Assembly: GCA_902773475.1 (NCBI GenBank)
Contig: CACYEO010000086.1
Location: 1-13,165, forward strand
Direction: 5' to 3'
From: an uncultured bacterium
GTDB lineage: Bacteria > Verrucomicrobiota > Kiritimatiellia > RFP12 > UBA1067
DNA length: 13,165 nucleotides
Positions 324 to 13,165 of this stretch are shown here, piece after piece. Below the pieces are notes generated by a model. It was given only the letters and a program-made list of their open reading frames with translations, did not search any database and was not told the origin of the DNA. A program made the position numbers and the translations under genes. Position 1 is the stretch's first letter; every line of letters starts with the position of its first letter.

Positions 324-353
324 TTGACAACAGGAATAAAGAAATAGTATCAT
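324..353 (+). promoter_or_regulatory. Putative sigma70-type promoter with a -35 TTGACA at 324-329 and a -10 candidate TAGTAT/TATCAT at 345-353, giving a spacer of 15-18 bp. It is followed by an SD-like AAGGA at 372-376 and an ATG at 383.
   Basis: There is a perfect -35 hexamer and a near-consensus -10 in the AT-rich leader immediately upstream of the first gene, with appropriate spacing to the RBS and start codon. Confidence 0.4.
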
Positions 354-382: not shown

Positions 383-712
383 ATGCCTGCTGAAAACTAC
401 ATGAGTCTGGAAGAGGTTGCCGAATTCCTCGGCGTGACCTATCAGTTGATTTACAGGCTTGTTCGCTCCGGCGAACTGCCTGCGGCGCGTCTCGGGAAAC
501 TGTACCGCGTTTCGCGCGCCGATCTCGAACGCTATCTCGAATCCAGCAAGACCCCCGCCGCAGGCGGCGTGTGCAGCGTGTGCGGCACGGTCTACAAATC
601 GTCTGGGTCCCTCGGCAACGTCTGCAAGGAAAGCGGTTGCGGCGAGCCTATATGCTTCGACTGCTGGAACCGTCTCGGCATCCGCTATTGCAAAAAGCAC
701 GCCAAGAAGTGA
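383..712 (+). CDS. DNA-binding protein with an N-terminal excisionase/MerR-superfamily helix-turn-helix and a C-terminal Cys-rich putative zinc-ribbon or zinc-binding tail.
   Basis: The N-terminal sequence is MSLEEVAEFLGVTYQLIYRLVRSGELPAARLGKLYRVSRADLERYLE. This matches the excisionase-family HTH pattern (L-x-EEAAE-LGVS-x-TVYRL-x-GELPA-R-G-x-RI-x-DLE-YL). The C-terminus reads CSVCG..CKESGCGEPICFDCW..YCKKH, with at least 8 Cys. RBS AAGGA is 6 nt upstream of the ATG. Confidence 0.8.
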   Translation: MPAENYMSLEEVAEFLGVTYQLIYRLVRSGELPAARLGKLYRVSRADLERYLESSKTPAAGGVCSVCGTVYKSSGSLGNVCKESGCGEPICFDCWNRLGIRYCKKHAKK

Positions 713-765: not shown

Positions 766-2589
766 ATGGGTCTCTTCAGCGACATCTGCCCGGACTGCGG
801 CGCCAGGGTTTCAAAGCGCGCCAGATTCTGTTCAAAGTGCGGGCGCGGCGCCCCCGACGGGTGGTTCAAGTGTCCGCAGTGCGGCAAATGGGCAGGCAAC
901 GATTCCAAGTTCTGCCCGCACTGCAACCATCCGCTTTTCCCCGAAGAACGCATAGATCTCGCGGGCGGGGTCTGGGCGCGCAAGCCCGGGGAATTCGCGC
1001 GGCGTTTCGAGCTTGACGACGTCCGATTCATCAAAGAGAACGGCCTGCTTGTGCAGGAGGGGACTGTCGCCGTGTTGCTCGACGGCGGGAAAGAGGTGAA
1101 AGAACTCGGCCCAGGCCGCCACCACCCGACTGGAACGCTCCGTTCTATCAACTGGTTCGGCAATCCTCCCCCGCGTTCGGCCGTCATGGTCGACGCCGGG
1201 GAATGCATATTCAGGGTTGATTTCACCGGGAACAATTCCGGCGTGGGCGAAGTCCGGTCTGCGCCGCTGCGCACCGCCGAGGAACTGGAAGTCGGGTGCG
1301 TCGCGGAGATCACGGTGCGTTTTGTCGCCGGCAGGGCGGATAAATTCGTGGCCAACGTCATGAAAGAGTCCAGATCCGTTTCTGCGAAGGACGTATGCGC
1401 GCTTCTGTACGAGAACGCTCTTTCGGCCGTGCGCGATCTGTGTACGCAATCGAAGATCGAGGATCTGGTGAAGGATCCCGAACGCCGCGAGCGGTTCGAG
1501 GACGGAATAACCCGCGCGCTGCGCGAGAGCATGAAAGACTGGGGCCTTGAAATCGTCCGTACCGGCGCGGTCGAATTCTACGGCGCCGCATACGAGGAAA
1601 TCCGCGCCAAATACGGGGAGCTCGAAAAGTCCCGCAGACTTGTCGAATTCGGGAAAGCCCAGATCGAGGTTCTCGCCGCCGCCGCCGACCAGGAAGCGGC
1701 GGAAGGCAAGCGGAACGCGCAGCGCGACCGGGAGATGGAGGAATATCTTGCGCAGCTTGCGCAGGAGAAGGAGCTTTCCGCGCTCGAACGCGACCGGGAG
1801 CTGCAAATCGCCAGGCGCGTTTCGCAGGGCGAGATTTCCGCCGCAGAGGCCAGACTCGCGGCCGCGCGCGAACTTGAAGAACACGCGAAGGCGATGACGG
1901 CGCTGGCGCACAAGCTGGAACTCGATCTGACGCTGCGCAACTACGACAGGGAGCAGCTTGTCGCCGACGCCGACAACAAGGCGAAGCTTTCGGCCATCGC
2001 CCGCGACGAACGCCTGAAAGACGAAAAACTCGACACCTCCGTCATGGGCGAGAAGCTGAGCCAGGCGAAACTGAACGACGAAATCGAAAGAATCCGCATT
2101 TCGCGCGAGCAGTGGGAGGCGATGATATGGCTTGATGTCCGTAAAAAGAAAGACGACATCAAGAACCAGGGCATGCGCGACAGGCTCGACATGTTCTCCG
2201 GCAGGGACGCGCGGGCCGTCGCAGCCGTCATGGCGCAGGAAGGCGATCCTTCCGTATCGAGTGCGATCCTGGGGCAGGAGGCGGAAGCGGCCCGCATGGC
2301 GCACGATGAAAACATGTCCAGGATCCAGGCCGGGATGACCGCCGAGCAGATTCTTGCGACTGGCGCCGCGAAGAGCCCCGACGCGGCCAAGGAGGCGTAT
2401 GCGCGCGCGGCCGAGGCCGGAGAAAAGGCGAACGGGAAGGTGCTGGAAGAGCGGCGCGGGATGGATGCCGAAATCCGGGCCGACCGCGACAAGACCGAAG
2501 GGCGTGTAATCGGCCTTGCCGAGAAGGCGGTCGAGAAAAACACCACTGTAGTCCAGGCGCCGGCGCCGGTCACCAACATGCAGCACTGA
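766..2589 (+). CDS. SPFH (band-7/flotillin-like) domain protein with an N-terminal double zinc ribbon and a long C-terminal Glu/Ala/Arg-rich coiled-coil.
   Basis: The N-terminus has two CxxC-x10-CxxC units (CPDCG..CSKCG and CPQCG..CPHCN). Next comes an SPFH-like core (LVQEGTVAVLLDGGKEVKELGPGRHHP ... GLEIVRTGAVEFY). The remaining ~330 aa are heptad-like E/A/R/K-rich sequence typical of flotillin C-termini. RBS AAAGGAA lies upstream. Confidence 0.85.
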   Translation: MGLFSDICPDCGARVSKRARFCSKCGRGAPDGWFKCPQCGKWAGNDSKFCPHCNHPLFPEERIDLAGGVWARKPGEFARRFELDDVRFIKENGLLVQEGTVAVLLDGGKEVKELGPGRHHPTGTLRSINWFGNPPPRSAVMVDAGECIFRVDFTGNNSGVGEVRSAPLRTAEELEVGCVAEITVRFVAGRADKFVANVMKESRSVSAKDVCALLYENALSAVRDLCTQSKIEDLVKDPERRERFEDGITRALRESMKDWGLEIVRTGAVEFYGAAYEEIRAKYGELEKSRRLVEFGKAQIEVLAAAADQEAAEGKRNAQRDREMEEYLAQLAQEKELSALERDRELQIARRVSQGEISAAEARLAAARELEEHAKAMTALAHKLELDLTLRNYDREQLVADADNKAKLSAIARDERLKDEKLDTSVMGEKLSQAKLNDEIERIRISREQWEAMIWLDVRKKKDDIKNQGMRDRLDMFSGRDARAVAAVMAQEGDPSVSSAILGQEAEAARMAHDENMSRIQAGMTAEQILATGAAKSPDAAKEAYARAAEAGEKANGKVLEERRGMDAEIRADRDKTEGRVIGLAEKAVEKNTTVVQAPAPVTNMQH

Positions 2590-2606
2590 AGCGGCGCTTG
2601 CAGGAA

Positions 2607-3923
2607 ATGACAGACGGAGACCATGCAATCTGCGGAAAGTGCGGCGCCCGCAACGCGGCGGACGCCAATTTCTGCATGTCGTGCGGCGCGAGGATGGTAA
2701 GCGCGCCGCCGTCTGGCGCACCGTCCGCCGCCCCTCCCCCGCCCGCAGCCGCCGCGTTCGCGCCGGCCGCGGTTGGCGAAGGCCGTCCCTGCCCGCCGCC
2801 AGGCGATTCCGCCGTGCCGTTCGTTTTCGCCGTATGCTCGCCGGATGCGTTCTGCAAAGGGCAGGCCGGCGTGTTCGTGCTGCGCTTCCGCGCGCTCGCA
2901 GACGTGTTCGAAAGCGTGTCATTCGCCCTTGTGCACGGGCGGGACGCGGTAAGGAACGCGGCGATAGACGGCCGTCCCGGAATCTGGGAGCACGAAGTGA
3001 TAATGGATGTGCAGCCTGAAACGCCCGGGCAGACCGGATTCGTTTTCGAAGTCCGCTGCCGGCGCGACGGATACGCTGATGACGAGTGGGAGGTCTATGC
3101 ATCCGCGCCGGTCATAGTGACCGTTGACGTCGCTCCGGTGGCGCAGAATCTGAACATAGACTTGGGCGGCTTGAACGTCATTGCCGGACAGTCCGACCGC
3201 GCGGCGGATTCAAAGGCGGTCAACAACCAGGTTTTCAACATATCTTCGTCTGCCGTGTTCGACCCCAATTCCCCGCGGTACAGGAAGGGTGTGCGGGCCG
3301 GGGACTGCAGGATGCATTTGAAATCCGCGCCGCGAAGGCTCACGCTTCATTCGTCTTCTTCTTCCAGGACGCTGCTTCTTCTTTCGAAGAATGAAATATC
3401 GTTCGGGCGCAAAAACGAAGCGACCGATGTGTCGATAAGGTGTTTCGGCGACGGTGGAGAATGCGATATCCCGTTATCCAAGATGGTTTCGCGCAGGCAT
3501 TTCGCCATATCCTACGACGGCATGGAATGCCGCATTTCCGATTTGGGATCGACGAAAGGCACGGTTTTCGACGGAAGAACGGTCGCGCCCGGAATGCCGA
3601 AAAGGATCAAGCCCGATGTGCGGCATTCGCTGACGGTCGCCATAATGCCGGACTTTTCCATGGATGCATATTGCGACCGTCTGGGCATAACGACGGGACT
3701 TTCGATAGACAGGACCGACGGTGCGCGGCAGCGCGTGTTCGCCGTGTGGCGCATGGGCGTGCCGGCCGGAAACGGCGGCGGGGAATTCGGCTGGAACGGA
3801 AAGTATTTCGTGTTCAGCCGCGCCGGCGGCGGCTGCAATCCGCTGCTGCCTGGAATGTCCGTTGAAATCGACGGAGAAACCTACGATGTGCAGGTGTACA
3901 ACCAGCCGTATGGAACGGAGTGA
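2607..3923 (+). CDS. Zinc-ribbon FHA-domain protein. It has an N-terminal CxxC..CxxC zinc ribbon, a Pro/Ala-rich linker, a beta-rich middle region of unknown function, an FHA domain (approx nt 3397-3650) and a C-terminal region of unknown function. The start may instead be the TTG at 2598.
   Basis: The ribbon is CGKCGARNAADANFCMSCG. The linker is PPSGAPSAAPPPPAAAA. The FHA signature is ISFGRKNEATDVSI...VSRRHFAISYDGMECRISDLGSTKGTVFDG (G-R, S-RRH-A-I, DLGSTNGT pattern). Confidence 0.85.
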   Translation: MTDGDHAICGKCGARNAADANFCMSCGARMVSAPPSGAPSAAPPPPAAAAFAPAAVGEGRPCPPPGDSAVPFVFAVCSPDAFCKGQAGVFVLRFRALADVFESVSFALVHGRDAVRNAAIDGRPGIWEHEVIMDVQPETPGQTGFVFEVRCRRDGYADDEWEVYASAPVIVTVDVAPVAQNLNIDLGGLNVIAGQSDRAADSKAVNNQVFNISSSAVFDPNSPRYRKGVRAGDCRMHLKSAPRRLTLHSSSSSRTLLLLSKNEISFGRKNEATDVSIRCFGDGGECDIPLSKMVSRRHFAISYDGMECRISDLGSTKGTVFDGRTVAPGMPKRIKPDVRHSLTVAIMPDFSMDAYCDRLGITTGLSIDRTDGARQRVFAVWRMGVPAGNGGGEFGWNGKYFVFSRAGGGCNPLLPGMSVEIDGETYDVQVYNQPYGTE

Positions 3924-3945: not shown

Positions 3946-4398
3946 ATGAAAATCACGAAAAAACTGGCGGCGGCATTCGTCCTTGCCGCGATCGCGGGAT
4001 GCACGACATGTCCCGTTTACAAAGTGAACGCAACGGCTGCGACGCCGGGAGCGGAAAACCTCGCGCGCGGGATAGCTTTCGACGTGAACGGCGGGCTGCT
4101 TGCAAAGGGGTATCCGATGCTCGCGCCGGGCGCCAGACTGAAATCCGGCCAGCGGCTCGTTGCGATCGACCTTGAGGTGGAACGGCGCGAAACGGCGTCG
4201 CTGGGCGACTGGCGCACTTACGAAGGCGTCGTGAGGGCGAGCGTGACCGACGGCGGCAAGCCCGCCGGAGCCGCCGAGTTCCGCGCCGGAGGGGAACGCG
4301 CCGACAACGAAACGGACGCCGAGCGCGGAGTGCGCGAGGCTCTTGCAAAGAGAGTCGGCGAATGGGTGGGCGGAGTGTCCGTCCCGGAAACCAAATGA
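3946..4398 (+). CDS. Small lipoprotein of about 150 aa with a signal peptide and a lipobox.
   Basis: The N-terminus is MKITKKLAAAFVLAAIAGC, with an n-region, an h-region and the lipobox IAG|C. A strong RBS AAAAGGAGAA lies 7 nt upstream. The six-frame ORF starting at 3721 is an upstream extension that overlaps the preceding gene. Confidence 0.75.
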   Translation: MKITKKLAAAFVLAAIAGCTTCPVYKVNATAATPGAENLARGIAFDVNGGLLAKGYPMLAPGARLKSGQRLVAIDLEVERRETASLGDWRTYEGVVRASVTDGGKPAGAAEFRAGGERADNETDAERGVREALAKRVGEWVGGVSVPETK

Positions 4399-4437: not shown

Positions 4438-5676
4438 ATGAAATTCCTTGCAGTATTCGCAATGGCCGCTGCCGCCGCAGGCGCTGCTTTCGCCGATTGC
4501 GGCAAATTCAACGATTTGGAAAAAGAGGCCGTGCGCAAGGCCGCCGCGGAAATCGCGGCGTCCCTGCGCAAGTCGGACAAGTGCTCCGGGCGCGCGGTGA
4601 CGCTGCTGCCCGTCAACGGCGACAAAGACGGATATGCGGAGCGTCTGCTCACCGGCGCGCTTGTCAATTCCGGCATGACGGTCGTTATGCCGAACGATGA
4701 AAACGACGTCCGTTTCAAGAGAATCCTCGCCAGCATCAAATGGGACGGCCGCCAGGTGAAACTTGGATCGGTGGATACGTCGACCGTGGACGAACTCGGA
4801 AGGCTCCGTTCCACGCAGGTGTTCATCGAGGCGGTTCTCGACATCAAGAGCGAAGAAAAATCCGCCAAGGCCGATTTGCACGTTCTTTCGTACGTGGTGG
4901 CCACAAAGTCGTATCTCGACGCCGCGAACGGGGTGGGCAATGCCGAGGCTCCGGCTGAGCCCCCTCCCCCGCCGCCGCGGAAAGCATGGACCGAAACCGC
5001 GGTGCAGAACGAGATCGTTCCGCTGCGCGTGAAGGTGGACACCCGCGCGAAAGACGCGGAATCGGAAGGCGTGGCCCGCCGGCTTGATACGGCGGTGCGG
5101 GGCGCGCTCGCGAAGCTCGGCTTCAGGCTCGCCGGAGAGGACTGCGACGCGAAAACCGTCGCGCTCGACGACGTCACCGTCACGCTCGACGTAGGGCGCT
5201 CCGTGTTCGACAAAGCCGGAGAATACGAAATCCATGAAGCCAAAGTTGACTTGTCCGCCGTAAAAAAAGCCGGCGCCGGAACCCTGCTCGTCGGAACGGC
5301 GGTGTTCGACGAACGCGGGGACCGCAAGCTCGGCAGCTTCGCGGCAGACAGGAGTCTCGCGGAGAAACTCGAAGGGCCGGCGGTGGAATGGCTCAAGAAG
5401 AACATCGTGCAGAACACCGTGAAGACGGCCGCCGTGCAGTTTGAAGTCCGCCTTGCAAAGCCGATTGCCGTCGCGGGCGACATGTCCGTCGTGGAAAAAT
5501 TCATGCAGCCTTTCGCGCTGCTCGGCGGCGTGCGGCTGTACAGGCTCGACGCGCGCGACGACGAAGCCGGCATGCTTCGGTTCTTCGTCGTGTACGAAAC
5601 GGAAAAATTCCCGGGTGGTCTGGTGCCGGCGTATTTCGCGTCCGCTCCCGAGCTTGGAGAACTGCTTGACAAGTGA
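4438..5676 (+). CDS. Secreted or periplasmic protein with a signal peptide and two repeated domains of unknown function. It is a paralogue of the next gene.
   Basis: The N-terminus is MKFLAVFAMAAAAAGAAFA|DCG, preceded by RBS AAAGGAG. The motif VTLLPVNGDKDGY...W (a CsgG/LpoB/TolB-N-like first-strand pattern) is present. There is an internal PAEPPPPPPRK linker. It aligns clearly with 5718..6812 (VTLLPVNGDKDGYAERL...FKRILASIKWD..LGRLRSTQVFIEAVL versus VAVLPVAGDRDRYIAGRL...FGEILKEIAWD..FGRLQAAQVLLTATV). Confidence 0.8.
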   Translation: MKFLAVFAMAAAAAGAAFADCGKFNDLEKEAVRKAAAEIAASLRKSDKCSGRAVTLLPVNGDKDGYAERLLTGALVNSGMTVVMPNDENDVRFKRILASIKWDGRQVKLGSVDTSTVDELGRLRSTQVFIEAVLDIKSEEKSAKADLHVLSYVVATKSYLDAANGVGNAEAPAEPPPPPPRKAWTETAVQNEIVPLRVKVDTRAKDAESEGVARRLDTAVRGALAKLGFRLAGEDCDAKTVALDDVTVTLDVGRSVFDKAGEYEIHEAKVDLSAVKKAGAGTLLVGTAVFDERGDRKLGSFAADRSLAEKLEGPAVEWLKKNIVQNTVKTAAVQFEVRLAKPIAVAGDMSVVEKFMQPFALLGGVRLYRLDARDDEAGMLRFFVVYETEKFPGGLVPAYFASAPELGELLDK

Positions 5677-5717: not shown

Positions 5718-6812
5718 ATGAAAAAGACGATTTTGGCTTTGGTTCTGCCGTTGCTCTCCGCCGCAGCTTTGGCTTCCGGCGGGAGCGAAGATCTCATGCG
5801 CCAGACGGTTGATGCGGCGTTCAAGGACGTGCAGGACGCGATTGCGGCGTCTCCGGTTCCCGCCGGCGCGACCGTGGCCGTCCTGCCCGTGGCGGGCGAC
5901 CGCGACCGCTACATCGCGGGACGGCTCAAAAACGCCGTGACCGCGGGCGGGCGCAAGTGCGTAGAAGACAAGGACGATCCGGTTTTCGGTGAAATCCTCA
6001 AGGAAATAGCCTGGGACGAACGCAAAGAAGACATACTCGACCCGGCCACGGTGCAGAAATTCGGCAGGCTCCAGGCCGCGCAGGTTCTGCTGACCGCTAC
6101 CGTGCGCACCTTGGAATCGAACGAGCGATATTCGTTTTTCGAGTTCGAGCTGCACGCCACGGAAATCGCCACCAAACGGCATCTTTGGGGCGACGTGTTC
6201 GAAAAGCATCTCTACATGCCCGGGCTCGAGGACGCGGCCGGCGAGTCGGGAATCCCCGCGCCTCTTCGCGATGCGCTGGCGTCGGAAATGCGCGCGAAAA
6301 TCGAAGCGTCATTGAAAAAATCCGGGAAACTTTCGAACATCGGCAAAGTCGCATACCTCCCCCTTGCGGGCGACTCGAAGGGATACGTATTTTCGATAGT
6401 GCGCGATGCGGTTTCGTCCACGTCCATGTCGCTCGTCAATCTCGACGTCGCGACCCGCGGAGAAGCCCGCATGCGCCTGCGCGACAGGCGCGTCGCGGCG
6501 GATGCGCTTCTGAGCGGATCGGTGCGCGAGCTGTCCGGGAGCGTGGTCGAGGATTCGCCCGCCGGAAAGCGCTTCCGCTACCGCGCCGAGGTGCAGCTGT
6601 GCATCGAAGGGACCGACGGCGCCGCACTCTGGAGCGATACGATATCCATCGACGTCGAACGGGAAGAGGAACTCGGCATCTGGGGCAGACTGTGCAAACT
6701 GTTTCCGTCCCTTGCAAGCAAGCCGTGGCTTGCGGTCGTCGTTCCGGTCTGTCTGGTCCTGGGCGTCTTTGTTTTCATATCCGTCTTGCGCGGCATGACG
6801 CGCGTGAGGTGA
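5718..6812 (+). CDS. Secreted paralogue of the previous gene. It has a signal peptide, two VxxLPhxGDxxxY-type domains and a C-terminal transmembrane anchor.
   Basis: The N-terminus is MKKTILALVLPLLSAAALA with RBS AAAGGA. It has the motifs VAVLPVAGDRDRY and VAYLPLAGDSKGY. The C-terminus KPWLAVVVPVCLVLGVFVFISVL is hydrophobic. An alternative in-frame ATG at 5700 lacks an SD. Confidence 0.8.
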   Translation: MKKTILALVLPLLSAAALASGGSEDLMRQTVDAAFKDVQDAIAASPVPAGATVAVLPVAGDRDRYIAGRLKNAVTAGGRKCVEDKDDPVFGEILKEIAWDERKEDILDPATVQKFGRLQAAQVLLTATVRTLESNERYSFFEFELHATEIATKRHLWGDVFEKHLYMPGLEDAAGESGIPAPLRDALASEMRAKIEASLKKSGKLSNIGKVAYLPLAGDSKGYVFSIVRDAVSSTSMSLVNLDVATRGEARMRLRDRRVAADALLSGSVRELSGSVVEDSPAGKRFRYRAEVQLCIEGTDGAALWSDTISIDVEREEELGIWGRLCKLFPSLASKPWLAVVVPVCLVLGVFVFISVLRGMTRVR

Positions 6813-6816
6813 GACG

Positions 6817-7701
6817 GTGGATGTGAAAACCGAAACATGCTGCGTCTGCGGGCGGGAACTTCCGAACCGCTACGCCGTGGCCGGCCGCTGCGATGCGGAC
6901 GGCTGCGGCGCGCCGTTCTGTTCGCTCCACTGGCACGACGGCAACGGGAAGTGCCCTGCGCACGGACGGGAAGAGAAAAAAGAATCCGGCAATCGAGGAG
7001 GAGAGGGAATGTCCGAACATGAAACGATAGAAGGCGAAACCGCCGCATCCGCAGTCCCCGCCGCGCCGCCGCCGCAGGCGGAGCCGCGTACGACCGGGAA
7101 AACAGTCGCCGCGGCCGCGCTGAAAGGCTCCGTCTCCATAGGCAGAAGCGCAGTCGCGTATTTCAAGAAACTGTGCGGAATACGCGATCCCAAGGCCGCG
7201 CTCGCGGAGGCGGAAGCGTCCCTCGCCGCGGTAAGAGAGCGCAGAGAGCCGCTTTCGGCGCGGTACGAAGAGCTTTATTCGAAGATTGCCGCCAAAAAGA
7301 AACTCCGCGACGGCGCTTCTCCCGCAAGGCGCAAAATGCTGGACATGGAGCTTCGCACGCTTCTTGCGGAATACAAGAGCATAGAGCGCGAGGTGTCCGC
7401 GCTGTACAGGAAAGAAGAAATGGTCGTCACGGTCAGAGGCCGCATGAACGAACTGGTCGTACAGGGCCTGCCGATGCCGCGCGTCGAAGACGTCGACCGC
7501 CTTGCAGACGACATTTCCGACGCCCTCGACACGGATGAAGACCTTGCCGATGCCGTGGGCGAGCTGGACAAGATCGGCGCGGGACGCGAGCGCCATGCGC
7601 CGAATCTGGACGAGGAACTCGCGGAATTCGAGGAATCGGCGCCGGAGGGCGAAACCGCGCGGCTCAGGCCGGAAAACCCCGCCGCCACTGTCGGGGAATG
7701 A
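6817..7701 (+). CDS. Zinc-ribbon protein with a Snf7/ESCRT-III-like (or PspA-superfamily) helical domain. The helical half is basic at its N-terminal end and strongly acidic at its C-terminal tail.
   Basis: A GTG start overlaps the upstream stop (GTGAGGTGAgacgGTG), with a GAGGTG SD. The N-terminus is CCVCG..CDADGCGAPFCSLHWHDGNGKCPAHG. The central segment has KKLRDG..RRKMLDMELRTLLAEYKSIEREVSALYRKEEMVVTVRGRMNELVVQ followed by VEDVDRLADDISDALDTDEDLADAVGELD. This resembles yeast Snf7 ...NMDIDKVDELMQDIADQQELAEEIS. The acidic tail is LDEELAEFEESAPE. The ESCRT-III assignment is inferred from sequence similarity and charge asymmetry, without profile search. Confidence 0.7.
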   Translation: MDVKTETCCVCGRELPNRYAVAGRCDADGCGAPFCSLHWHDGNGKCPAHGREEKKESGNRGGEGMSEHETIEGETAASAVPAAPPPQAEPRTTGKTVAAAALKGSVSIGRSAVAYFKKLCGIRDPKAALAEAEASLAAVRERREPLSARYEELYSKIAAKKKLRDGASPARRKMLDMELRTLLAEYKSIEREVSALYRKEEMVVTVRGRMNELVVQGLPMPRVEDVDRLADDISDALDTDEDLADAVGELDKIGAGRERHAPNLDEELAEFEESAPEGETARLRPENPAATVGE

Positions 7702-7719: not shown

Positions 7720-9111
7720 ATGGCGTTGTTCATGAGCGAAGCCGAAAGAAGGCGCGATGCGCGGCGGCGCCGCCGCCGCGCTTTGCGCGAAGTCCGCAAC
7801 GCCGTGGATGCGGCGAGGTTGAAGCGCGATGAAATATGCAAGCGCCGCGCGGATGAATGGAAGGCCGCGCGGGCTGCGCTTTCCGCCGGAGACGAGGCCG
7901 ACGCGCGGCGGCGGCTCGAGTCGGTCAGGACTGACGATGCCGCGCTGAAGCGCCTCGACGCCCGGCTGGCCCGGTTCGAGGCGCTTGAACGCGAAATGGA
8001 ATGCGCCGACGCCGATGCGGCGTTCGACGAGGCGTCGGCGTCTCTTTCTCGCTTCGTAAAGGCTCCGGAGGAGGCCGGGGAGGCCGAATCCGCGCCGCCG
8101 CCCTCCGTGGACGAACTGCTTGAACTTCTCGCCAGAGAACCTGAAACCGAAAAAACCGAAGGAACGGCCGGCCGTCCGAAACCGCCGCCGGCGGCATCGT
8201 CTCTGAAGGTGGACGGCGATGCAGACGCGTCGTCGAAATGGGTCGCGACAAAGCCGTCCGCCGTGCGCCTTGAAGACGTTGTCGGTCTTGACGATGCCAA
8301 GACGGCCGTGATGGACGCGCTCGTCAATCCCGTGAACCATCCCGACATATACAAAACGCTCAAGGTCGCGCCCGGAACAGGGCTTCTCCTCTACGGCCCG
8401 CCGGGAACAGGCAAGACGCTTTTCGCGAAAGCCGTCGCCAACGAAATGGGGCTGCCGTTCCTCGACGTCCGCTGCGACAGACTGAAAAGCAAATACGTAG
8501 GCGAGACCGAAAAGAACGTGGCCGAAATGTTCCGCGCCGCCCGAGCGCTCGGCAGATGCGTGCTGTTTCTTGACGAATGCAACGCGATTCTTTCCCGCCG
8601 CGGAGACCAGAAGGTCTGCATGGTGGAGCAGTTTCTTGTGGAGCTTGACGGGTTCTCGACGTCCGACGCGCAATTGTTCGTCTTGATGGCCACGAACCTT
8701 CCCTGGACGCTCGATCCCGCAATCACGCGCAGCGGCCGCCTGAGCGAAGCCGTTTACGTAGGACTGCCTGACGAGGCCGCGCGGCGCAGGCTGATTGCAA
8801 ACGCGTTCAAGGACGCACCTCTGGCGGCGGATGTGGATCTCGACTCTCTCGCCGCCCGCACGGAGGGGTTCAGCGGCGCCGATCTGGCGGCCAAGGGCGG
8901 ACTTTGCCACAAGGCCAAGACGTACGCGGCCCGCCGCTGGGTGGAGCGCCGTACCGGCGCGCCGGCGAAAGACGGCCCGGCGTGGGACGCGGTCGAGCGG
9001 GTGACGGCTGCGGATGTCGAAAAGGCGCTTGCGGGAACCGTTCCGGTCGCCAGTTCGGCGGCGGATATCGTGCAGCGCAACAGGGAATTTTCTCTCAAGA
9101 AAGAGGTGTAG
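7720..9111 (+). CDS. AAA+ ATPase of the Vps4/katanin ('meiotic') clade with an N-terminal Arg-rich helical domain that may be MIT-like.
   Basis: RBS GGAGGTGA lies upstream. The Walker A region is [48 protein letters not shown] (compare Vps4 [26 protein letters not shown]...[22 protein letters not shown]). Walker B is [11 protein letters not shown]. The SRR/arginine-finger region is ILSRRGD...FLVELDGF. The clade-typical sequence is [20 protein letters not shown] (Vps4 GATNIPWVLDSAIRRRF). Confidence 0.9.
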   Translation: [463 protein letters not shown]

Positions 9112-9114
9112 CGC

Positions 9115-9690
9115 ATGGCCTGGAAACTTGACGACAGCAGCGTCGGCCGCGAATTGAAGACCGGCGCCGGACCGAGCAAGAGGGAAAGATCTCTTCCTGC
9201 GGACGTCGCTTACGACGTGCAGCGCGTGCTGTACAGAAAATGGATCATCGCCGCGATAGAGTATCTGCTGAAGTTCGCCTTCTTCGCCGGACTGCTGTGG
9301 CTGGCGTGGCGCGGCGTGAAGTCGCTGCTTCCGGAAGACACCCCGGCTCCGCAGGCCCCGGCCGCCGTCCAGGCGGTTCCCGATGCACCGGCCGCGCAGG
9401 CGGCCGCCATAGGCGCGCCCGCAGTGCTCGGCCTCGCCCTGGCGGTGCTGCTCCTCCCCGTGATGACGATATCGTTCATAAGGACGATGGTTGCAAAGCG
9501 GTCGAACAGAGTGAACGCGTTCACTTTGGGCGTGTATACCGCGATAGACATGATCCTGGCGTATTTCATGGTAGGCGCGTCGCTTGAAACCGCCGTCTCC
9601 GCCGTGCTTTTCACCGGGGCGTCGTTGCTTTCGCTGATATACAACATGACTGTGATGAACTATGCCGTGAAACTCGAAGACGGAAAGTGA
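9115..9690 (+). CDS. Small integral membrane protein with 3-4 predicted TM helices and unknown function.
   Basis: RBS AGAGGTG lies upstream. The hydrophobic segments are IIAAIEYLLKFAFFAGLLWLAW, VLGLALAVLLLPVMTISFI, FTLGVYTAIDMILAYFMVGA and AVLFTGASLLSLIYNMTVM. Confidence 0.7.
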   Translation: MAWKLDDSSVGRELKTGAGPSKRERSLPADVAYDVQRVLYRKWIIAAIEYLLKFAFFAGLLWLAWRGVKSLLPEDTPAPQAPAAVQAVPDAPAAQAAAIGAPAVLGLALAVLLLPVMTISFIRTMVAKRSNRVNAFTLGVYTAIDMILAYFMVGASLETAVSAVLFTGASLLSLIYNMTVMNYAVKLEDGK

Positions 9691-9701
9691 AAGGCTGGCA
9701 A

Positions 9702-10667
9702 ATGGGCAGGCTTGACGAGATAGAAGCGCGCATCGACGCGCGCATGGCGGATATCGACAACCGCATTGACGCGATAGTCGGCGGGAACGGAACCGTGCCT
9801 CCAAAGGCAGGCTCCGCGGATACGCACAGGGGCTTCGCTCCGTTTGCGGAATCGCAACAGCCGGGAACCGCGCCTGGGATCCGCGGAATCGGGACGGCGG
9901 GCCGCGGGTCCGCGAGGCGCGTCGGACTGTGCGTGGGTTTGAACACCGTAGATTCTTCGGCATATCCAGGATACACCGTTCCGCCGCTTTCGGGCTGCAT
10001 CGCAGATGTGGAACGTCTCATGTGCGTGTTGAACAGGCTTGAATTCGAGGCCGCGAAACTTGTGGACGGACAGGCGACATGCGCCAATCTCTACAATGCC
10101 GTCAAAAAACTGACTGCCGTGTTGGAACCCGGAGATCTGTTCGTGCTGCACGTGTCCGGACACGGCGGACGGGTGAACGGCACGGGCGAGAACTGGTGTC
10201 TGTACGACGGGCTGGCGTGGGATTCCGACATCGTCTGGCTGTTTTCGCGCTTCCGTCCCGGCGTCCGCGTTCTTGTCATAAACGACCAATGCCATTCCGG
10301 CGGCATCTTCCAGTCCCGGAAGGCCGATGCGCCGTCTCCGTTCGGCGAACTGTGCAGGGCCGACGGACGCCCGGCGGACTGGGACGCCGGCGCCGCCGTG
10401 GCCGGGAAGGATTTCCCGATGCTCATCCAATTCGCCGGATGCCGCGCCGAGCAGACCAGCATCGACGGACTCGCCGGGGGAACCTGGACCCAGGCGCTTG
10501 TCAATGCGCTTGACGCCGCCGTTTCGCAGAATGCATATCTTACTTACAGGCAGTGGTTCGACTGCGCGTTTGCAAGCCCTGCGCTCCAGCGCGGGCGGCA
10601 GGATCCGCAGTGGGTGGAGAGTGCGGGCGTGACGGATGAATTCCGCGGTTGCGCGGCGCTTTTCTGA
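9702..10667 (+). CDS. Caspase-like cysteine peptidase (C14, metacaspase/orthocaspase-like) with a short N-terminal coiled-coil. An alternative GTG start at 9687 overlaps the upstream stop.
   Basis: The sequence runs VGLCVGLNTVDSSAYPGYTVPPLSGCIADVERL...LVDGQATCANLYNAVKKL...GDLFVLHVSGHGG (catalytic His in SGHG, nt ~10161)...GVRVLVINDQCHSGG (catalytic Cys in D-x-CHSG, nt 10290-10292). This is the metacaspase-type D[AS]CHSG signature. Confidence 0.85.
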   Translation: MGRLDEIEARIDARMADIDNRIDAIVGGNGTVPPKAGSADTHRGFAPFAESQQPGTAPGIRGIGTAGRGSARRVGLCVGLNTVDSSAYPGYTVPPLSGCIADVERLMCVLNRLEFEAAKLVDGQATCANLYNAVKKLTAVLEPGDLFVLHVSGHGGRVNGTGENWCLYDGLAWDSDIVWLFSRFRPGVRVLVINDQCHSGGIFQSRKADAPSPFGELCRADGRPADWDAGAAVAGKDFPMLIQFAGCRAEQTSIDGLAGGTWTQALVNALDAAVSQNAYLTYRQWFDCAFASPALQRGRQDPQWVESAGVTDEFRGCAALF

Positions 10668-10683
10668 CAGCGGGGGCATTGCG

Positions 10684-11997
10684 ATGAAACATGTTTTCGA
10701 CAGCAGGGATTTTTTGGCGTCCGCCAATACTGAGCGGCGCGCCGACGGAATGCGGCCGGACGTCAGAGACGCTCCGGCACAGGACGGAAAGGTTCCACAG
10801 TGGATGACCGCATCGCTTGCAAGAACCGTGATCGTCACGCTTGCGATAGGAGCGATGCTGTATTTCGTCTTTCAAAACGAGTTCCTTTCCCGTCTGGGCA
10901 ATTGCGTGCTTGCGGCGTTGTTCGTGCCTCTTTTGAGCGAACTCGTCGCCGGGCTTCTGCGCAGGAAAAACGTGCAGCGCGTTTCGGGCGTGCGCGCGAT
11001 TGCGGCATGCGACAGGAAATACGTGAAATTCGCCTGCTTTGCGCATCTGCTTCTCGCAGCCGTCCTTGCGGCATTCATCGCGATAGGATTCTGGAACGGA
11101 AGGAGCAAGTCCGGGGCGGACGTGGCGAAAGTCTCTGACGGACAGCCTGCCGGGGCCCCGGCGGAAACAGCGCCTGAACCTGAAGCGCCCTGTTCCGGCA
11201 GACTTGCAAAAGCCGGCGCCGCGAAAGTCTCGCCCGGGCAGATAAAGGCGTATTTGACGCCTTCAGACGCCGAGGTGGAACAATTGTACCAAATGGTCGT
11301 CGCGGCTCCGTTCGTCGCCGAGAACCTGCAGTATCGCGACCGCCTTGCGAACATTCCGTTCGTGTATATCGCCACGAACGATGTTGTCAATGCCTCTTCG
11401 CTTCGAAATGTCGTGGAGAAGAACGGAGAAAAGTCGCTCGTGTTCCATACGGTGCTCTTCGGCGGCGCGGCGCGGTACGCCCGGCTCGTCGGCCTCGCGG
11501 CCGCTCTGCAGGACTCCGGACGCGGGGACATGCTCAAAAAGTTCGTGGCCGCGATGCCTAAGCGCTTCTGCGGCGTCTGCGACGAAGAGTCCTGCGAAAA
11601 ATTCATAACGGACAACGGATTGGACGAAGCACTCGCAGACGAGAAAATCCGGCTGCGCGCCGTGTCCTATTCCTCCGGCACGATAATAAGCATTCTCGCG
11701 CACGAGTGCGGACATCACGCCCTCGGGCATCTGCTGGGCTTTCCCCGGAAAGAGAATCTGTCCATCGACCGGAACCAGGAGCGGGAGGCTGACTCTTTTG
11801 CGTCGTCCGTCATCAGTGCAAGTCCGTTCGGAGAGTTCATATTCGCGGGAACCCTGTTTTGGCACTATGCAGTCGCCATGCAGTCGGAGGACGGCCGGTC
11901 TGCGGCTGGCGACCATCCGCATTCCAGAGAGCGTTTTGAGAATTTCGTGAAATCCAACCGGGAAAAAGCGGCGGCGATGGGAATAACGCTGGAATGA
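10684..11997 (+). CDS. Membrane-anchored zinc metalloprotease, M48/M56-like (HExxH...ExxAD). A longer in-frame start at 10636 would overlap the caspase gene.
   Basis: N-terminal TM helices are ARTVIVTLAIGAMLYFVF, CVLAALFVPLLSELVAGLL and FAHLLLAAVLAAFIAIGFW. The zinc-binding site is ISILAHECGHHALGHLLG (nt ~11701-11730), and the downstream QEREADSFA resembles the third zinc-ligand Glu motif of M48 peptidases. Confidence 0.8.
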   Translation: MKHVFDSRDFLASANTERRADGMRPDVRDAPAQDGKVPQWMTASLARTVIVTLAIGAMLYFVFQNEFLSRLGNCVLAALFVPLLSELVAGLLRRKNVQRVSGVRAIAACDRKYVKFACFAHLLLAAVLAAFIAIGFWNGRSKSGADVAKVSDGQPAGAPAETAPEPEAPCSGRLAKAGAAKVSPGQIKAYLTPSDAEVEQLYQMVVAAPFVAENLQYRDRLANIPFVYIATNDVVNASSLRNVVEKNGEKSLVFHTVLFGGAARYARLVGLAAALQDSGRGDMLKKFVAAMPKRFCGVCDEESCEKFITDNGLDEALADEKIRLRAVSYSSGTIISILAHECGHHALGHLLGFPRKENLSIDRNQEREADSFASSVISASPFGEFIFAGTLFWHYAVAMQSEDGRSAAGDHPHSRERFENFVKSNREKAAAMGITLE

Positions 11998-13165
11998 CTG
12001 ACGAAACATTGAGCGATGCTGTGACGCTTGACGGCGGGAATGACCGGATTCTCGCCGGGCGCTATCGCATATTGAAACAGCTCGGCGCAGGCGGCATGGG
12101 GTCGGTCTGGCTCGCAGAGGACATGCAGTTAGACAACAAGCTTTTCGCAATAAAGATGCTGCCGCAGGTTGTCGCTTCCGACAAGGAAGCCGCCAACTCG
12201 GTCAAGCGCGAAGCGAAAGTCGCGATGAAGCTTTCGCATTCCAATATCGTCGTTTTGCGCGATTATGTCGAAAACGGCGGCAATCCTTTTTTGCTGATGG
12301 ATTATGTCGAGGGCATGCCCCTGTCATCCTGTCTTGCGGATTGGGGACGGCTTTCTCCCGAAGAAACAATCGCTCTTCGCGCTCCTGTCGCCGCCGCCAT
12401 AGACTATGCGCACACGCAAGGCGTGATACACCGGGACATAAAACCCGGCAATATAATCGTCCGCGCAAAAGACGTCACGCCGTTCGTGCTGGATTTCGGC
12501 ATCGCGCGCGATGTGCATGAAAGCATGTCGCGAATGACCGGCAAACAGCCGTCGGGCACATTGATGTACATGTCGCCGGAGCAGATCAACGGCGAACTCC
12601 CCGCAAAGGCGCACGACATATATTCGTTCGCCGCCACGGTGTACCAGTGCCTTGCCGGAAAACCGCCTTTCAGCAGGGGCGACATAACCCACCAGATTCT
12701 CGACAACCCTCCCCCGCCGTTGCCTCCGGGATGCTCTGGCAGGCTTGGCGCGGCGGTAATGGCCGGTCTGGATAAAAATCCGGCTAAACGGCCTTTGTCG
12801 TGTACTAATCTGCTGCGGGGAATAATTCCGGACGGCAAAAAACCGCGGCGCTTGCTAAACAACATGCTGCCGCGCCCTTCCAAAAAAAGGATATTGCCGT
12901 TTTTTATCACGGGCGTTCTTGTTTCATTGATTGCCGGCGGTGTATATTACGGTTTGTCTAAACAATGGAAAACCAGTGATGGAAATGCCGTTCCAAAGCA
13001 CGGCGACACGAAGACAATCACTCTTCCAGACAGAGCGACGACGGAAATGGTATACGTCGAGCCAAAGCACGGCGACACGAAGACAATCACTCTCCCCGGC
13101 GGAGCGACGATGGAACTGATATATGTCGCGCCCGGCTCTTTCACGATGGGAAGCCCTTCTTTCGA
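11994..13165 (+). CDS. Hanks-type Ser/Thr protein kinase with a TM segment and an extracytoplasmic FGE-sulfatase/SUMF1-like domain. It is 3'-truncated by the window edge.
   Basis: I translated this myself, because it has no stop in the window and is therefore missing from the ORF track. The ATG overlaps the upstream TGA (ATGA). Kinase motifs are LGAGGMGSVW (G-loop), FAIKML (VAIK), VIHRDIKPGN (catalytic loop, nt ~12428), LDFGIA (DFG) and YMSPE (APE). The TM segment is ILPFFITGVLVSLIAGGVYYGL. The start of the FGE-type domain is MELIYVAPGSFTMGSP. Confidence 0.9.
   Translation, partial: MTDETLSDAVTLDGGNDRILAGRYRILKQLGAGGMGSVWLAEDMQLDNKLFAIKMLPQVVASDKEAANSVKREAKVAMKLSHSNIVVLRDYVENGGNPFLLMDYVEGMPLSSCLADWGRLSPEETIALRAPVAAAIDYAHTQGVIHRDIKPGNIIVRAKDVTPFVLDFGIARDVHESMSRMTGKQPSGTLMYMSPEQINGELPAKAHDIYSFAATVYQCLAGKPPFSRGDITHQILDNPPPPLPPGCSGRLGAAVMAGLDKNPAKRPLSCTNLLRGIIPDGKKPRRLLNNMLPRPSKKRILPFFITGVLVSLIAGGVYYGLSKQWKTSDGNAVPKHGDTKTITLPDRATTEMVYVEPKHGDTKTITLPGGATMELIYVAPGSFTMGSPSF
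12993..13130 (+). repeat. In-frame tandem duplication of a 69-bp (23-codon) unit inside the kinase gene.
   Basis: CCAAAGCACGGCGACACGAAGACAATCACTCT occurs at 12993 and again, identically, at 13062. The remainder of the two copies is diverged (PKHGDTKTITLPDRATTEMVYVE versus PKHGDTKTITLPGGATMELIYVA). Confidence 0.85.

Follow-up and report, generated by a model that had tools for sequence, protein, structure and literature searches.

A tagged caspase homologue and an M48-like membrane protease in a recurrent SPFH, FHA and kinase operon of uncultured Kiritimatiellia

The stretch of DNA analysed here (the window, a complete contig of 13,165 bp from an uncultured Kiritimatiellia bacterium, UBA1067) encodes side by side a caspase homologue and an M48-like membrane protease (M48L), each a new member of a known family. 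Both belong to an operon of 13 genes, all on the plus strand and separated by gaps of at most 40 nt or joined by overlapping ends, in the order HTH protein, Zn-ribbon SPFH protein, Zn-ribbon FHA protein, Lp0, Lp1, Lp2, ZnCC, Snf7-like/AAA fusion, four-transmembrane (4-TM) protein, caspase, M48L and kinase. Homologue look-ups and a genome scan recovered the same cluster in more than 25 loci, nearly all in rumen or gut Kiritimatiellae metagenome genomes. We tentatively favour the view that the two proteases are the protease arm of a lineage-restricted, membrane- or envelope-associated operon, which would act as a kinase-gated protease hub docked on an SPFH scaffold. As to its purpose, we lean towards a response to stress or infection.

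The evidence that ties the caspase to this operon lies mainly in its N-terminus. The first ~27 residues (MGRLDEIEARIDARMADIDNRIDAIVG) are near-identical to the N-termini of other proteases encoded in the related clusters. These are thermolysin-like M4 proteases (L001, L004 and L008; L-numbers denote related loci and P-numbers homologous proteins), papain-like C1 proteases (L011, L050, L051 and L052) and short soluble paralogues of M48L (L006, L007, L008, L013, L017, L018, L019 and L035). With a hidden Markov model (HMM) of this tag it was found only at residue 1 of C14, M4, C1 and soluble M48-like proteases, and the same HMM revealed no copy on any core protein of the clusters. A tag-seeded scan of metagenomes gave six loci. 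Five of them have the tag at the start of a protease open reading frame (ORF), three C1 and two C14, all within the same cluster type, and in the sixth (L055) the open frame spans 41 residues and contains no recognisable domain. Signal peptides are absent from all tagged proteins. A search of 1.84 billion representative proteins with a 34-residue tag, a query too short for the purpose, returned two matches, which cover internal stretches only and were judged irrelevant.

The initial annotation had described an N-terminal coiled coil in the caspase. The helix (RLDEIEARIDARMADIDNRIDAI) is indeed present, but it is more than an oligomerisation helix, being a conserved tag found on four unrelated protease classes of these clusters. 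Since the tag is shared by these classes, the protease position of the cluster is a swappable slot, the caspase an interchangeable accessory and its coiled-coil N-terminus a conserved recruitment module. The tag would tether the interchangeable proteases to a cytoplasmic scaffold, most likely the coiled coil of the SPFH protein. The ATPase is a less likely partner because in L004/L005 tagged M4 and C14 proteases persist in the absence of the ZnCC, Snf7-like and AAA genes. In this locus (1606-14803) the genes run HTH, SPFH, FHA, Lp0-2, tagged M4, tagged C14, M48L and kinase, and the 20 kb fetched include none for ZnCC, the Snf7-like protein or AAA. Clusters with tagged proteases can therefore lack the ATPase module.

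Three further observations concern the N-termini of the proteases. A second N-terminal motif, MK[YFH]x[FY]xxSxL, with a transmembrane (TM) helix behind it, is common to TM-anchored versions of M48L (homologues P0064-P0069, P0123, P0147, P0151 and window positions 10684-10716) and of C14 (homologues P0032, P0034 and P0035, L038:10001-11032), where it seemingly takes the place of the soluble docking tag. At the cluster end of L001 (13250-15187) a fifth associated protease class is represented by a legumain-like C13 protease that is untagged and has an ordinary signal peptide; the adjoining gene (L001:15241-15933) encodes a lipoprotein paralogue of the C13 N-terminal domain. A match of the tag (ExxIxxRMxxI) to the MIM1 motif, (D/E)xxLxxRLxxL(K/R), was also considered but not relied on, since a Pfam search found no MIT domain in the AAA protein.

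The database copy of the caspase (P0001) has 321 aa. This length, together with the MGR or MSR start of all homologues, establishes ATG 9702 as the true start, and the gene limits originally proposed (9702-10667) are correct. The motif coordinates are also exact: nt 10155-10166 encode SGHG (His codon CAC, 10161-10163) and nt 10284-10301 encode DQCHSG (Cys codon TGC, 10290-10292). The match to Pfam Peptidase_C14 (PF00656) reaches 51.8 bits, where the cutoff is 21.4, with E 1.1e-13. In comparisons with PDB sequences the single caspase sequence matches 3BIJ (GSU0716) at 1.8e-23 and AtMC4 at 2.9e-12, and the profile of the 31-member family matches 3BIJ at 8.5e-64 over the whole domain (residues 3-274). 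The profile also finds AtMC4 (1e-25), Yca1 (3e-21), MCA2 (2e-17) and MC9, in a range that extends to 1e-16. Cys197 is aligned with the positions at which the catalytic cysteine is mutated to alanine in 6W8R and 4F6P. Four residues are invariant in the 31 family sequences: His154, Cys197, Asp102 (in GC99xxD102) and Asp195 (in D195xC197 of DxCHSG). In metacaspases and orthocaspases two acidic residues of the S1 pocket, equivalent to Asp95 and Asp211 of TbMC2, provide specificity for Arg/Lys (PMC6426788); Asp102 and Asp195 are their counterparts here.

From the C14 score, the alignments and the invariant residues, the protein is regarded as a genuine C14 relative and an active-type orthocaspase, probably active and probably with a basic (Arg/Lys) P1 preference. 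The earlier proposal of a C14 protease with an intact dyad and probable activity is thereby upheld at the level of sequence: the profile searches point to the C14 family, the score exceeds the Pfam cutoff, and the dyad fits the solved structures as judged by sequence alignment. The protein was also said to lack a signal peptide, and a Kyte-Doolittle scan found no hydrophobic segment in it. With the orthocaspases and metacaspases of MEROPS C14B (GSU0716 of Geobacter sulfurreducens, 3BIJ; AtMC4; Yca1; TbMCA2) it has the fold, the dyad and the two S1 aspartates in common. It differs from the known C14B members in that the ~27-residue N-terminal tag and a Gly/Pro-rich linker replace their prodomains or C-terminal domains. 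Every close relative of the caspase that could be placed sits within a cluster of the type described here. A 30%-identical relative adjoins a CHAT protein in a different gene context, and viral contigs gave only distant C14 proteins (26-33% identity).

The second protease, M48L, occupies ORF 10636-11997. Its likely start is ATG 10684 because the 99%-identical protein P0063 has 437 aa. Three hydrophobic segments (aa 43-64, 71-93 and 113-140) are followed by a soluble domain containing HECGH (nt 11701-11715), EREAD (nt 11779-11793) and HPHSRER (nt 11914-11934), which bears out the original description of a TM-anchored HExxH...ExxAD protease. H340-E-x-x-H344, E366/E368 of EREAD and HPHSRER show little or no variation among 20 homologues. 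The match to Pfam Peptidase_M48 (PF01435) is marginal for the window protein (14.7 bits, cutoff 20.3); homologues score 27.2 (P0123 and P0178), 26.3 (P0104) and 22.4 bits (P0156). A profile of M48L gave one marginal match among PDB sequences, to the HExxH region of ZMPSTE24 (E 1.2). In the structure model the catalytic domain has the predicted fold of an M48 gluzincin, with HExxH in a soluble domain of predicted local distance difference test score (pLDDT) >90. Its nearest structural neighbours are M48 peptidases, with BepA, which we take to be periplasmic, at the top. Precomputed annotation assigns PF10463 (Peptidase_U49, Lit) to every M48L homologue, but a local Pfam-A scan never lists this family, even with E up to 10. 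The library version or the filters may differ.

Compared with the M48 peptidases BepA/YfgC, HtpX, Ste24/ZMPSTE24 and 3C37, M48L shows marginal sequence similarity and lacks the TPR domain of BepA. Its N-terminal part instead consists of a cytoplasmic motif with one to three TM helices, or of the docking tag in the soluble paralogues. Lit is an exclusion protease that cleaves EF-Tu. Judged by its genomic context, M48L, unlike Lit, is not prophage-borne but sits in a conserved chromosomal operon, and it differs from both groups in always adjoining a Hanks kinase. The loop between TM2 and TM3 of M48L contains eight Lys/Arg. In 84 single-TM homologues the mean number of Lys plus Arg is 4.3 in the N-terminal flank versus 2.8 in the C-terminal flank (N>C in 57, N<C in 12). 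On this charge bias the protein is predicted to have an N-in, C-out topology, which would put the catalytic domain in the periplasm.

These properties bear on one of the two explanations put forward in the initial annotation, a cascade of site-1 and site-2 proteases. In such a cascade the caspase would cut a membrane regulator, after which the metalloprotease would cut within the membrane and free a transcription factor. A soluble protease does adjoin a TM-anchored HExxH protease, a DNA-binding protein heads the operon, and the single-pass kinase to which M48L is tightly coupled is a conceivable substrate. However, HExxH starts at aa 340, some 200 residues beyond the end of the last TM helix at aa 140, and appears to lie in a soluble BepA-like domain, not within the membrane as in M50 proteases. 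No sigma or anti-sigma gene was found in the operon with Pfam and NCBIfam. The caspase is moreover dispensable, being absent from most clusters, and replaceable by C1 or M4, and the two proteases are predicted to reside on opposite sides of the membrane. The predicted domain arrangement and the gene content together make such a cascade highly improbable, and we regard it as essentially excluded.

The neighbourhood of the two proteases is conserved in two layouts. Layout A reads HTH-SPFH-FHA-Lp0-Lp1-Lp2-ZnCC-[Snf7-like]-AAA-M48L-STK, in which STK stands for Ser/Thr kinase. Layout B reads HTH-SPFH-FHA-[Snf7-like]-AAA-ZnCC-three other exported proteins-M48L-M48L'-STKs. The constant parts across clusters are M48L, SPFH and one to five kinases. 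The genome scan recovered ~20 Kiritimatiellae species among 29 genome matches. Adjacent M48L and STK genes, some with SPFH and AAA, also occur in Thermodesulfobacteriota, Haloferula, Desulfobacterales and Brocadiaceae. A caspase is carried by the window and by L001, L002/3, L004/5, L011, L037, L038, L050, L053 and L054, and is missing from most of the loci recovered with M48L. The possibility that caspase and M48L are unrelated neighbours was rejected in view of their recurrent co-location in one operon. The original view that both are outputs of a larger system containing an ATPase and kinases is supported. In layout B a protein of ~85 aa with a single TM helix (MEREDAKDLTLS...) follows the M48L genes (L035:12067-12321, L036:11043-11303); it has no counterpart in the window.

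Two details of the original gene order require revision. The caspase gene does lie downstream of the ATPase gene, but the two are not adjacent, as the 4-TM gene separates them. The downstream kinase is not a sensor kinase of the histidine or two-component kind but a Hanks-type Ser/Thr kinase, paired with an FHA reader. It matches Pfam Pkinase at 5.8e-42, has intact HRD, DFG and VAIK-like motifs and a TM helix at aa 299-322, and its start overlaps the M48L stop (ATGA), so that M48L and kinase are translationally coupled. Kinase orthologs have FGE-sulfatase, Sel1 or LRR ectodomains, and beta-lactamase is also found among the kinase ectodomains. The FHA domain carries its GR and SxxH motifs. For the SPFH protein a hydropathy scan found no hydrophobic segment, which implies the absence of a TM helix, and a comparison with PDB sequences gave no informative match; its orthologs are recovered with E-values down to 0.

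In the mechanism that we tentatively prefer for this operon, the SPFH protein would provide a scaffold lining the inner membrane on its cytoplasmic side, and the tagged proteases, here the orthocaspase, would dock on it. M48L would be the invariant protease, held by three TM helices with its BepA-like domain in the periplasm, next to the ectodomains of kinases that share its N-in, C-out topology. These ectodomains would first sense a cue from the envelope or from outside the cell. The kinases would then phosphorylate cytoplasmic components, and the resulting phosphothreonines would be read by the FHA protein. In a third step an assembly of SPFH protein, Zn-finger hairpin and Snf7-like protein would be built, or remodelled by the AAA ATPase. 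The docked proteases would finally gain or lose access to their substrates, resulting in kinase-gated proteolysis at the cell envelope. Of this picture, the domain identities, the conserved catalytic residues, the common tag and the recurrent gene neighbourhood are observed; the docking partner, topology, order of events, substrates and purpose are inferred.

Partnerships between SPFH proteins and proteases are well established, and HtpX and OMA1 are M48-type proteases to which M48L can be likened in this respect. By analogy, the hub could be a modular counterpart of HflK/C-FtsH, stomatin-STOPP and SLP2-PARL-YME1L. As in the SPFH-protease assemblies (HflK/C-FtsH, stomatin-STOPP/NfeD, prohibitin-m-AAA and SLP2-PARL-YME1L), an SPFH protein is associated, here by being co-encoded, with an AAA ATPase and with membrane proteases that include one of the M48 type. 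Unlike in those assemblies, the SPFH protein begins with Zn ribbons and lacks a TM helix, no M41 domain is fused to the AAA protein, and the proteases carry tags, are interchangeable and come as separate proteins. Further additions are the exported lipoproteins, the Snf7-like proteins and signalling through FHA and Ser/Thr kinase.

Several points weigh against a kinase-gated hub. Neither NfeD nor an FtsH-type M41 domain was found in the operon with Pfam and NCBIfam, so it does not fall among the known SPFH-protease pairs. The partner of the tag is deduced only from which genes are present or absent. Proteases of the M4 and papain types are normally secreted, and the TM-anchored or lipoprotein relatives of C14 and M48L fit export at least equally well. 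The variable complement of proteases and kinases, the generic PADLOC hits and the patchy recovery would also be expected of a conflict system. The topology is predicted solely from the positive-inside rule and is ambiguous for the TM-anchored C14 variants.

The conflict system was the other explanation offered in the initial annotation. In that case the tagged caspase and its C1 and M4 substitutes would be latent toxic effectors kept on a scaffold; a phage or damage signal passing through the kinases, the FHA protein and the AAA protein would free them, and together with the Lit-like metalloprotease they would degrade essential host proteins and arrest the cell. The slot is polymorphic, as it accommodates C14, C1, M4, C13 or an additional M48L, and the kinase ectodomains likewise vary between FGE-sulfatase, Sel1, LRR and beta-lactamase. 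The precomputed Peptidase_U49 annotation of the M48L homologues, the patchy recovery across genomes and PADLOC matches to IetA (3.3e-37), caspase (5e-06), a peptidase model (2.6e-06) and the mad1 HTH (2.4e-10) point in the same direction. The logic of a tag on the effector also resembles that of effector-associated domains (EADs) (PMC7159879).

Other observations speak against a conflict system. No M48L relatives were found in plasmid, phage and IMG/VR collections. Where flanks were seen, they contain genes for sugar metabolism and housekeeping instead of defence islands. The core is strongly conserved, with 55-81% identity in the M48L catalytic domain across more than 100 clusters and the SPFH E-values mentioned above. 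Three exported envelope proteins are always present, and the core protease is predicted to be periplasmic, away from cytoplasmic targets. A complete known defence system was not detected: Pfam and PADLOC searches covering IetAS, MADS and CBASS-CapP found no IetS, MAD2-8, cyclase, vWA, MoxR or STAND partner in the operon, and the tag has no counterpart on a core protein. The conflict layout is therefore possible but lacks specific support, as the PADLOC matches are generic (an IetA-like AAA without IetS), mobile-element relatives were not found and the flanks are metabolic or housekeeping, and we consider it unlikely, albeit deserving of serious attention.

Comparison with the NTPase-centred conflict systems that use EADs (Kaur et al. 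2020, PMC7159879) and with IetAS of PADLOC shows protease effectors with a small helical adaptor, variable effectors and a nearby AAA protein in common. The present operon differs in having no vWA, MoxR/VMAP, STAND, GTPase or IetS partner. Its tag measures ~27 residues instead of the ~80-100 residues of an EAD or Death-like domain, and is not duplicated on a core protein. In one related locus (L036) a Fic-domain gene and a gene for a STAND-like ATPase (AAA_16/AAA_35) lie downstream of the cluster (16153-17202, 20841-21029), an observation that would favour conflict. DUF3990 genes occur within or beside two clusters (L002:20703-20909; L038:2740-3384). The Fic, STAND-like and DUF3990 genes are possible conflict-related neighbours.

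A further explanation starts from the view that the tagged proteases are not residents of the cytoplasm. The N-terminal helix could be a non-classical sorting or export signal, with the SPFH protein, the Snf7-like protein, the hairpin, the AAA ATPase, the 4-TM protein and the lipoproteins delivering the tagged proteases across the inner membrane, or out of it, to the periplasm, the surface or vesicles; the caspase would then be cargo. Helical N-terminal targeting, FHA domains and kinases are combined in a comparable way in LXG/T7SSb and in the threonine-phosphorylation pathway of type VI secretion (T6SS). All tagged proteins are proteases without a signal peptide and come from families that are usually extracytoplasmic, two examples being M4, with a weak FTP propeptide match, and C1, with a lectin-like domain. 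Versions of the C14 and M48L catalytic domains with N-in TM anchors or lipoprotein signals also exist, and the M48 peptidases closest in structure to M48L are headed by the presumably periplasmic BepA. Exported or lipoprotein components are always encoded, with weak LpoB/FlgT_M-like similarity. Among the Lp2 homologues Pfam LpoB appears in 6 of 10 (best E 0.0021) and FlgT_M in 3 of 10, both weakly; a search of the PDB with the Lp2 profile found no match. Archaeal ESCRT variants with FHA, STK and Zn-ribbon-SPFH proteins, moreover, have been proposed to sort proteins (PMC11188069).

Against export, Pfam, PADLOC and NCBIfam scans revealed no recognisable translocon, secretin or ABC exporter. The tagged proteases of L004/L005 occur without AAA or Snf7-like genes, and the C13 protease of L001 uses an ordinary signal peptide, indicating that Sec export is available to the cells. 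The assignment to ESCRT-III is weak for ZnCC and borderline for the Snf7-like protein, and the AAA protein lacks MIT and Vps4_C. Taken together, the role of the caspase as exported cargo seems doubtful, though it is a serious contender.

Three components of the operon bear on a resemblance to ESCRT systems. The first is the AAA protein (AAA domain nt 8383-8763), whose NCBIfam scores are 196 bits for CDC48, 174 for PAN, 167 for FtsH and 162 for CdvC, all far under the family cutoffs (650 for CdvC). No Pfam match to MIT or Vps4_C was found in it. The second is its N-terminal domain of ~120 residues (Snf7-like, aa 3-118, nt 7726-8073), which is homologous (E 1e-8 to 5e-15) to free-standing proteins of ~200 aa whose genes precede the AAA gene elsewhere. 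For seven of eight of these free-standing proteins Snf7 is the top Pfam match, in one case above threshold (29.0 bits versus 27.3), and in L035, L036 and L038 the protein is precomputed as 'Snf7 (weak)'. Against the PDB, the best four matches of the free-standing family profile are yeast SNF7 (E 0.011-0.085). The window copy has no Pfam match of its own. Separate-gene counterparts lie at L002:7106-7744, L035:4586-5167 and L036:5367-5948; L012 and L051 apparently have the same Snf7-like/AAA fusion, followed by the 4-TM gene.

The third component, ZnCC, is predicted by AlphaFold2 (pLDDT 80.5) to form helices at 125-166, 169-216 and 223-255 that build a long helical hairpin. Its similarity to ESCRT-III is weak: CHMP4B is matched at E 0.32, and 5 of 15 homologues match Pfam Snf7, at best with E 0.025. 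Foldseek gave no significant match, and hhalign detected no relationship between the Snf7-like and ZnCC families. The ZnCC profile search recovered close family members only, with no Pfam annotation and no bridge to Snf7. An affinity of ZnCC to ESCRT-III is thus not demonstrable.

In archaea, ESCRT variants have FHA proteins, Ser/Thr kinases and Zn-ribbon-SPFH-coiled-coil proteins as partners, and protein sorting is their proposed function (Makarova et al. 2024, PMC11188069). Systems of ESCRT-III with a Vps4-like ATPase are stated to be absent from bacteria (PMC11188069, PMC7619361). Bacterial Snf7/PspA genes beside AAA+ ATPases have been noted, the present cluster not being among them (PMC11237479), and contexts of Band-7 with PspA/ESCRT-III have been discussed (PMC11188069, PMC11237479). 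The operon has the same partner set as the Halo_FHA and Meth_adaptin groups of archaeal variants (PMC11188069), namely a Snf7-family protein, a classical AAA ATPase, an FHA protein, a Ser/Thr kinase and a Zn-ribbon-SPFH-coiled-coil protein. It differs from them in its bacterial host, in an AAA protein that lacks MIT and Vps4_C and scores higher with CDC48 than with CdvC, in a borderline Snf7 match, and in the presence of proteases and periplasmic lipoproteins, for which the archaeal systems have no described counterpart. The two partner sets are strikingly alike; that the operon belongs to the ESCRT/Vps4 family is not established. It is conceivable, if rather improbable, that the operon is a bacterial counterpart of archaeal ESCRT-type sorting, in which kinases and FHA would control a Cdc48/Vps4-like AAA ATPase, Snf7-like polymers and a cage of SPFH protein; these would read the N-terminal sorting signal and move interchangeable proteases across the inner membrane or pack them into vesicles.

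Literature searches found no published description of the cluster, of a tag on four protease classes, of the Snf7-like-AAA fusion or of a 13-gene system with SPFH, FHA, kinase and lipoproteins. Bacterial caspase homologues are widespread, and for very few is a partner, a trigger or a location known. A tag of ~27 residues that ties a caspase and three other protease classes to one membrane system makes recruitment, localisation and activation directly testable. The combination of SPFH, Snf7-like, classical AAA and FHA/Hanks kinase proteins was recently described for archaeal ESCRT variants, and bacteria are said to lack it. Should the likeness extend to function, it would be relevant to how membrane remodelling and protein sorting evolved and to cell biology in the PVC (Planctomycetes-Verrucomicrobia-Chlamydiae) superphylum. 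If sorting of the ESCRT type were true, it would represent a new sorting or secretion principle in this superphylum and contradict the statements of bacterial absence (PMC11188069, PMC7619361). If the operon were a defence system instead, it would have a new architecture with polymorphic protease effectors.

The features of the window are collected in Table 1.

Table 1. Features assigned in the window (nt positions; M48L, M48-like membrane protease; TM, transmembrane)
Feature	Position	Strand	Evidence or remark
Promoter-like site TTGACA, 18-nt spacer, TATCAT	324..353	+	11/12 consensus positions; precedes operon
HTH_17 (excisionase/MerR-like) DNA-binding protein, C-terminal Cys-rich Zn finger	383..712	+	Pfam HTH_17 2.6e-17
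Double Zn-ribbon + SPFH/Band_7 + long coiled coil (flotillin-like scaffold)	766..2589	+	Band_7 44.2 bits (cutoff 23.6), DZR/Zn_Ribbon_1
Zn-ribbon + FHA phosphothreonine-binding protein	2598..3923	+	Pfam FHA 33.9 bits (cutoff 20.7); GR...SRRH...TKGT in translation
Lp0, small lipoprotein, lipobox IAGC	3946..4398	+	N-terminus MKITKKLAAAFVLAAIAGC; kept in layout-A clusters
Lp1, exported or lipoprotein paralogue with Lp0 domain	4438..5676	+	Signal-like N-terminus
Lp2, exported, C-terminal TM anchor aa 330-363	5718..6812	+	Signal peptide; weak LpoB/FlgT_M-like similarity
ZnCC, N-terminal Cys/His Zn finger + long helical hairpin, acidic C-terminus	6817..7701	+	
Snf7-like N-terminal domain fused to classical-clade AAA ATPase	7720..9111	+	Pfam AAA 1.7e-36
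4-TM membrane protein, no family named	9115..9690	+	Hydrophobic segments; orthologs adjoin fused AAA in L012, L051
Caspase ORF	9687-10667	+	Actual start ATG 9702
Caspase N-terminal tag MGRLDEIEARIDARMADIDNRIDAIVG	9702..9782	+	Tag HMM
C14 orthocaspase catalytic domain	9918..10664	+	His154, Cys197, S1 Asp102 + Asp195
M48L N-terminal part: MKHVFDSRDFL motif (predicted cytoplasmic) + three TM helices nt 10810-10875, 10894-10962, 11020-11103	10684..11235	+	
M48/Lit-like gluzincin catalytic domain	11236..11997	+	HECGH, EREAD, HPxSxER
Hanks Ser/Thr kinase + TM + two 23-aa repeats + start of FGE-sulfatase-like ectodomain	11994..13165	+	Ends at contig end

The HTH_17 gene also opens the cluster in L004, L006, L010, L019, L025, L026, L035 and L036. 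Its C-terminus (CSVCG...C...GCGEPICFDCW...CKKH) resembles the N-terminus of ZnCC (CCVCG...C...GCGAPFCSLHW...CPAH; 6817-6970) and seems to be a Cys/His zinc finger of the same type. Four operon proteins have terminal zinc modules, namely HTH_17, SPFH, FHA and ZnCC. The Lp0-type domain is contained in Lp1 paralogues. Rfam and tRNA scans of the window gave no match. The leader (1-380) has a lower G+C (about 0.55) and contains short tandem repeats at 173-202, 201-252 and 250-275, upstream of the promoter-like site. A 69-bp tandem repeat in two copies, 87% identical, is located at 12993-13132 within the kinase ectodomain. It encodes a 23-aa unit twice (PKHGDTKTITLP..AT.E..YV), just ahead of the FGE-sulfatase-like GSFTMGSP motif at the contig end.

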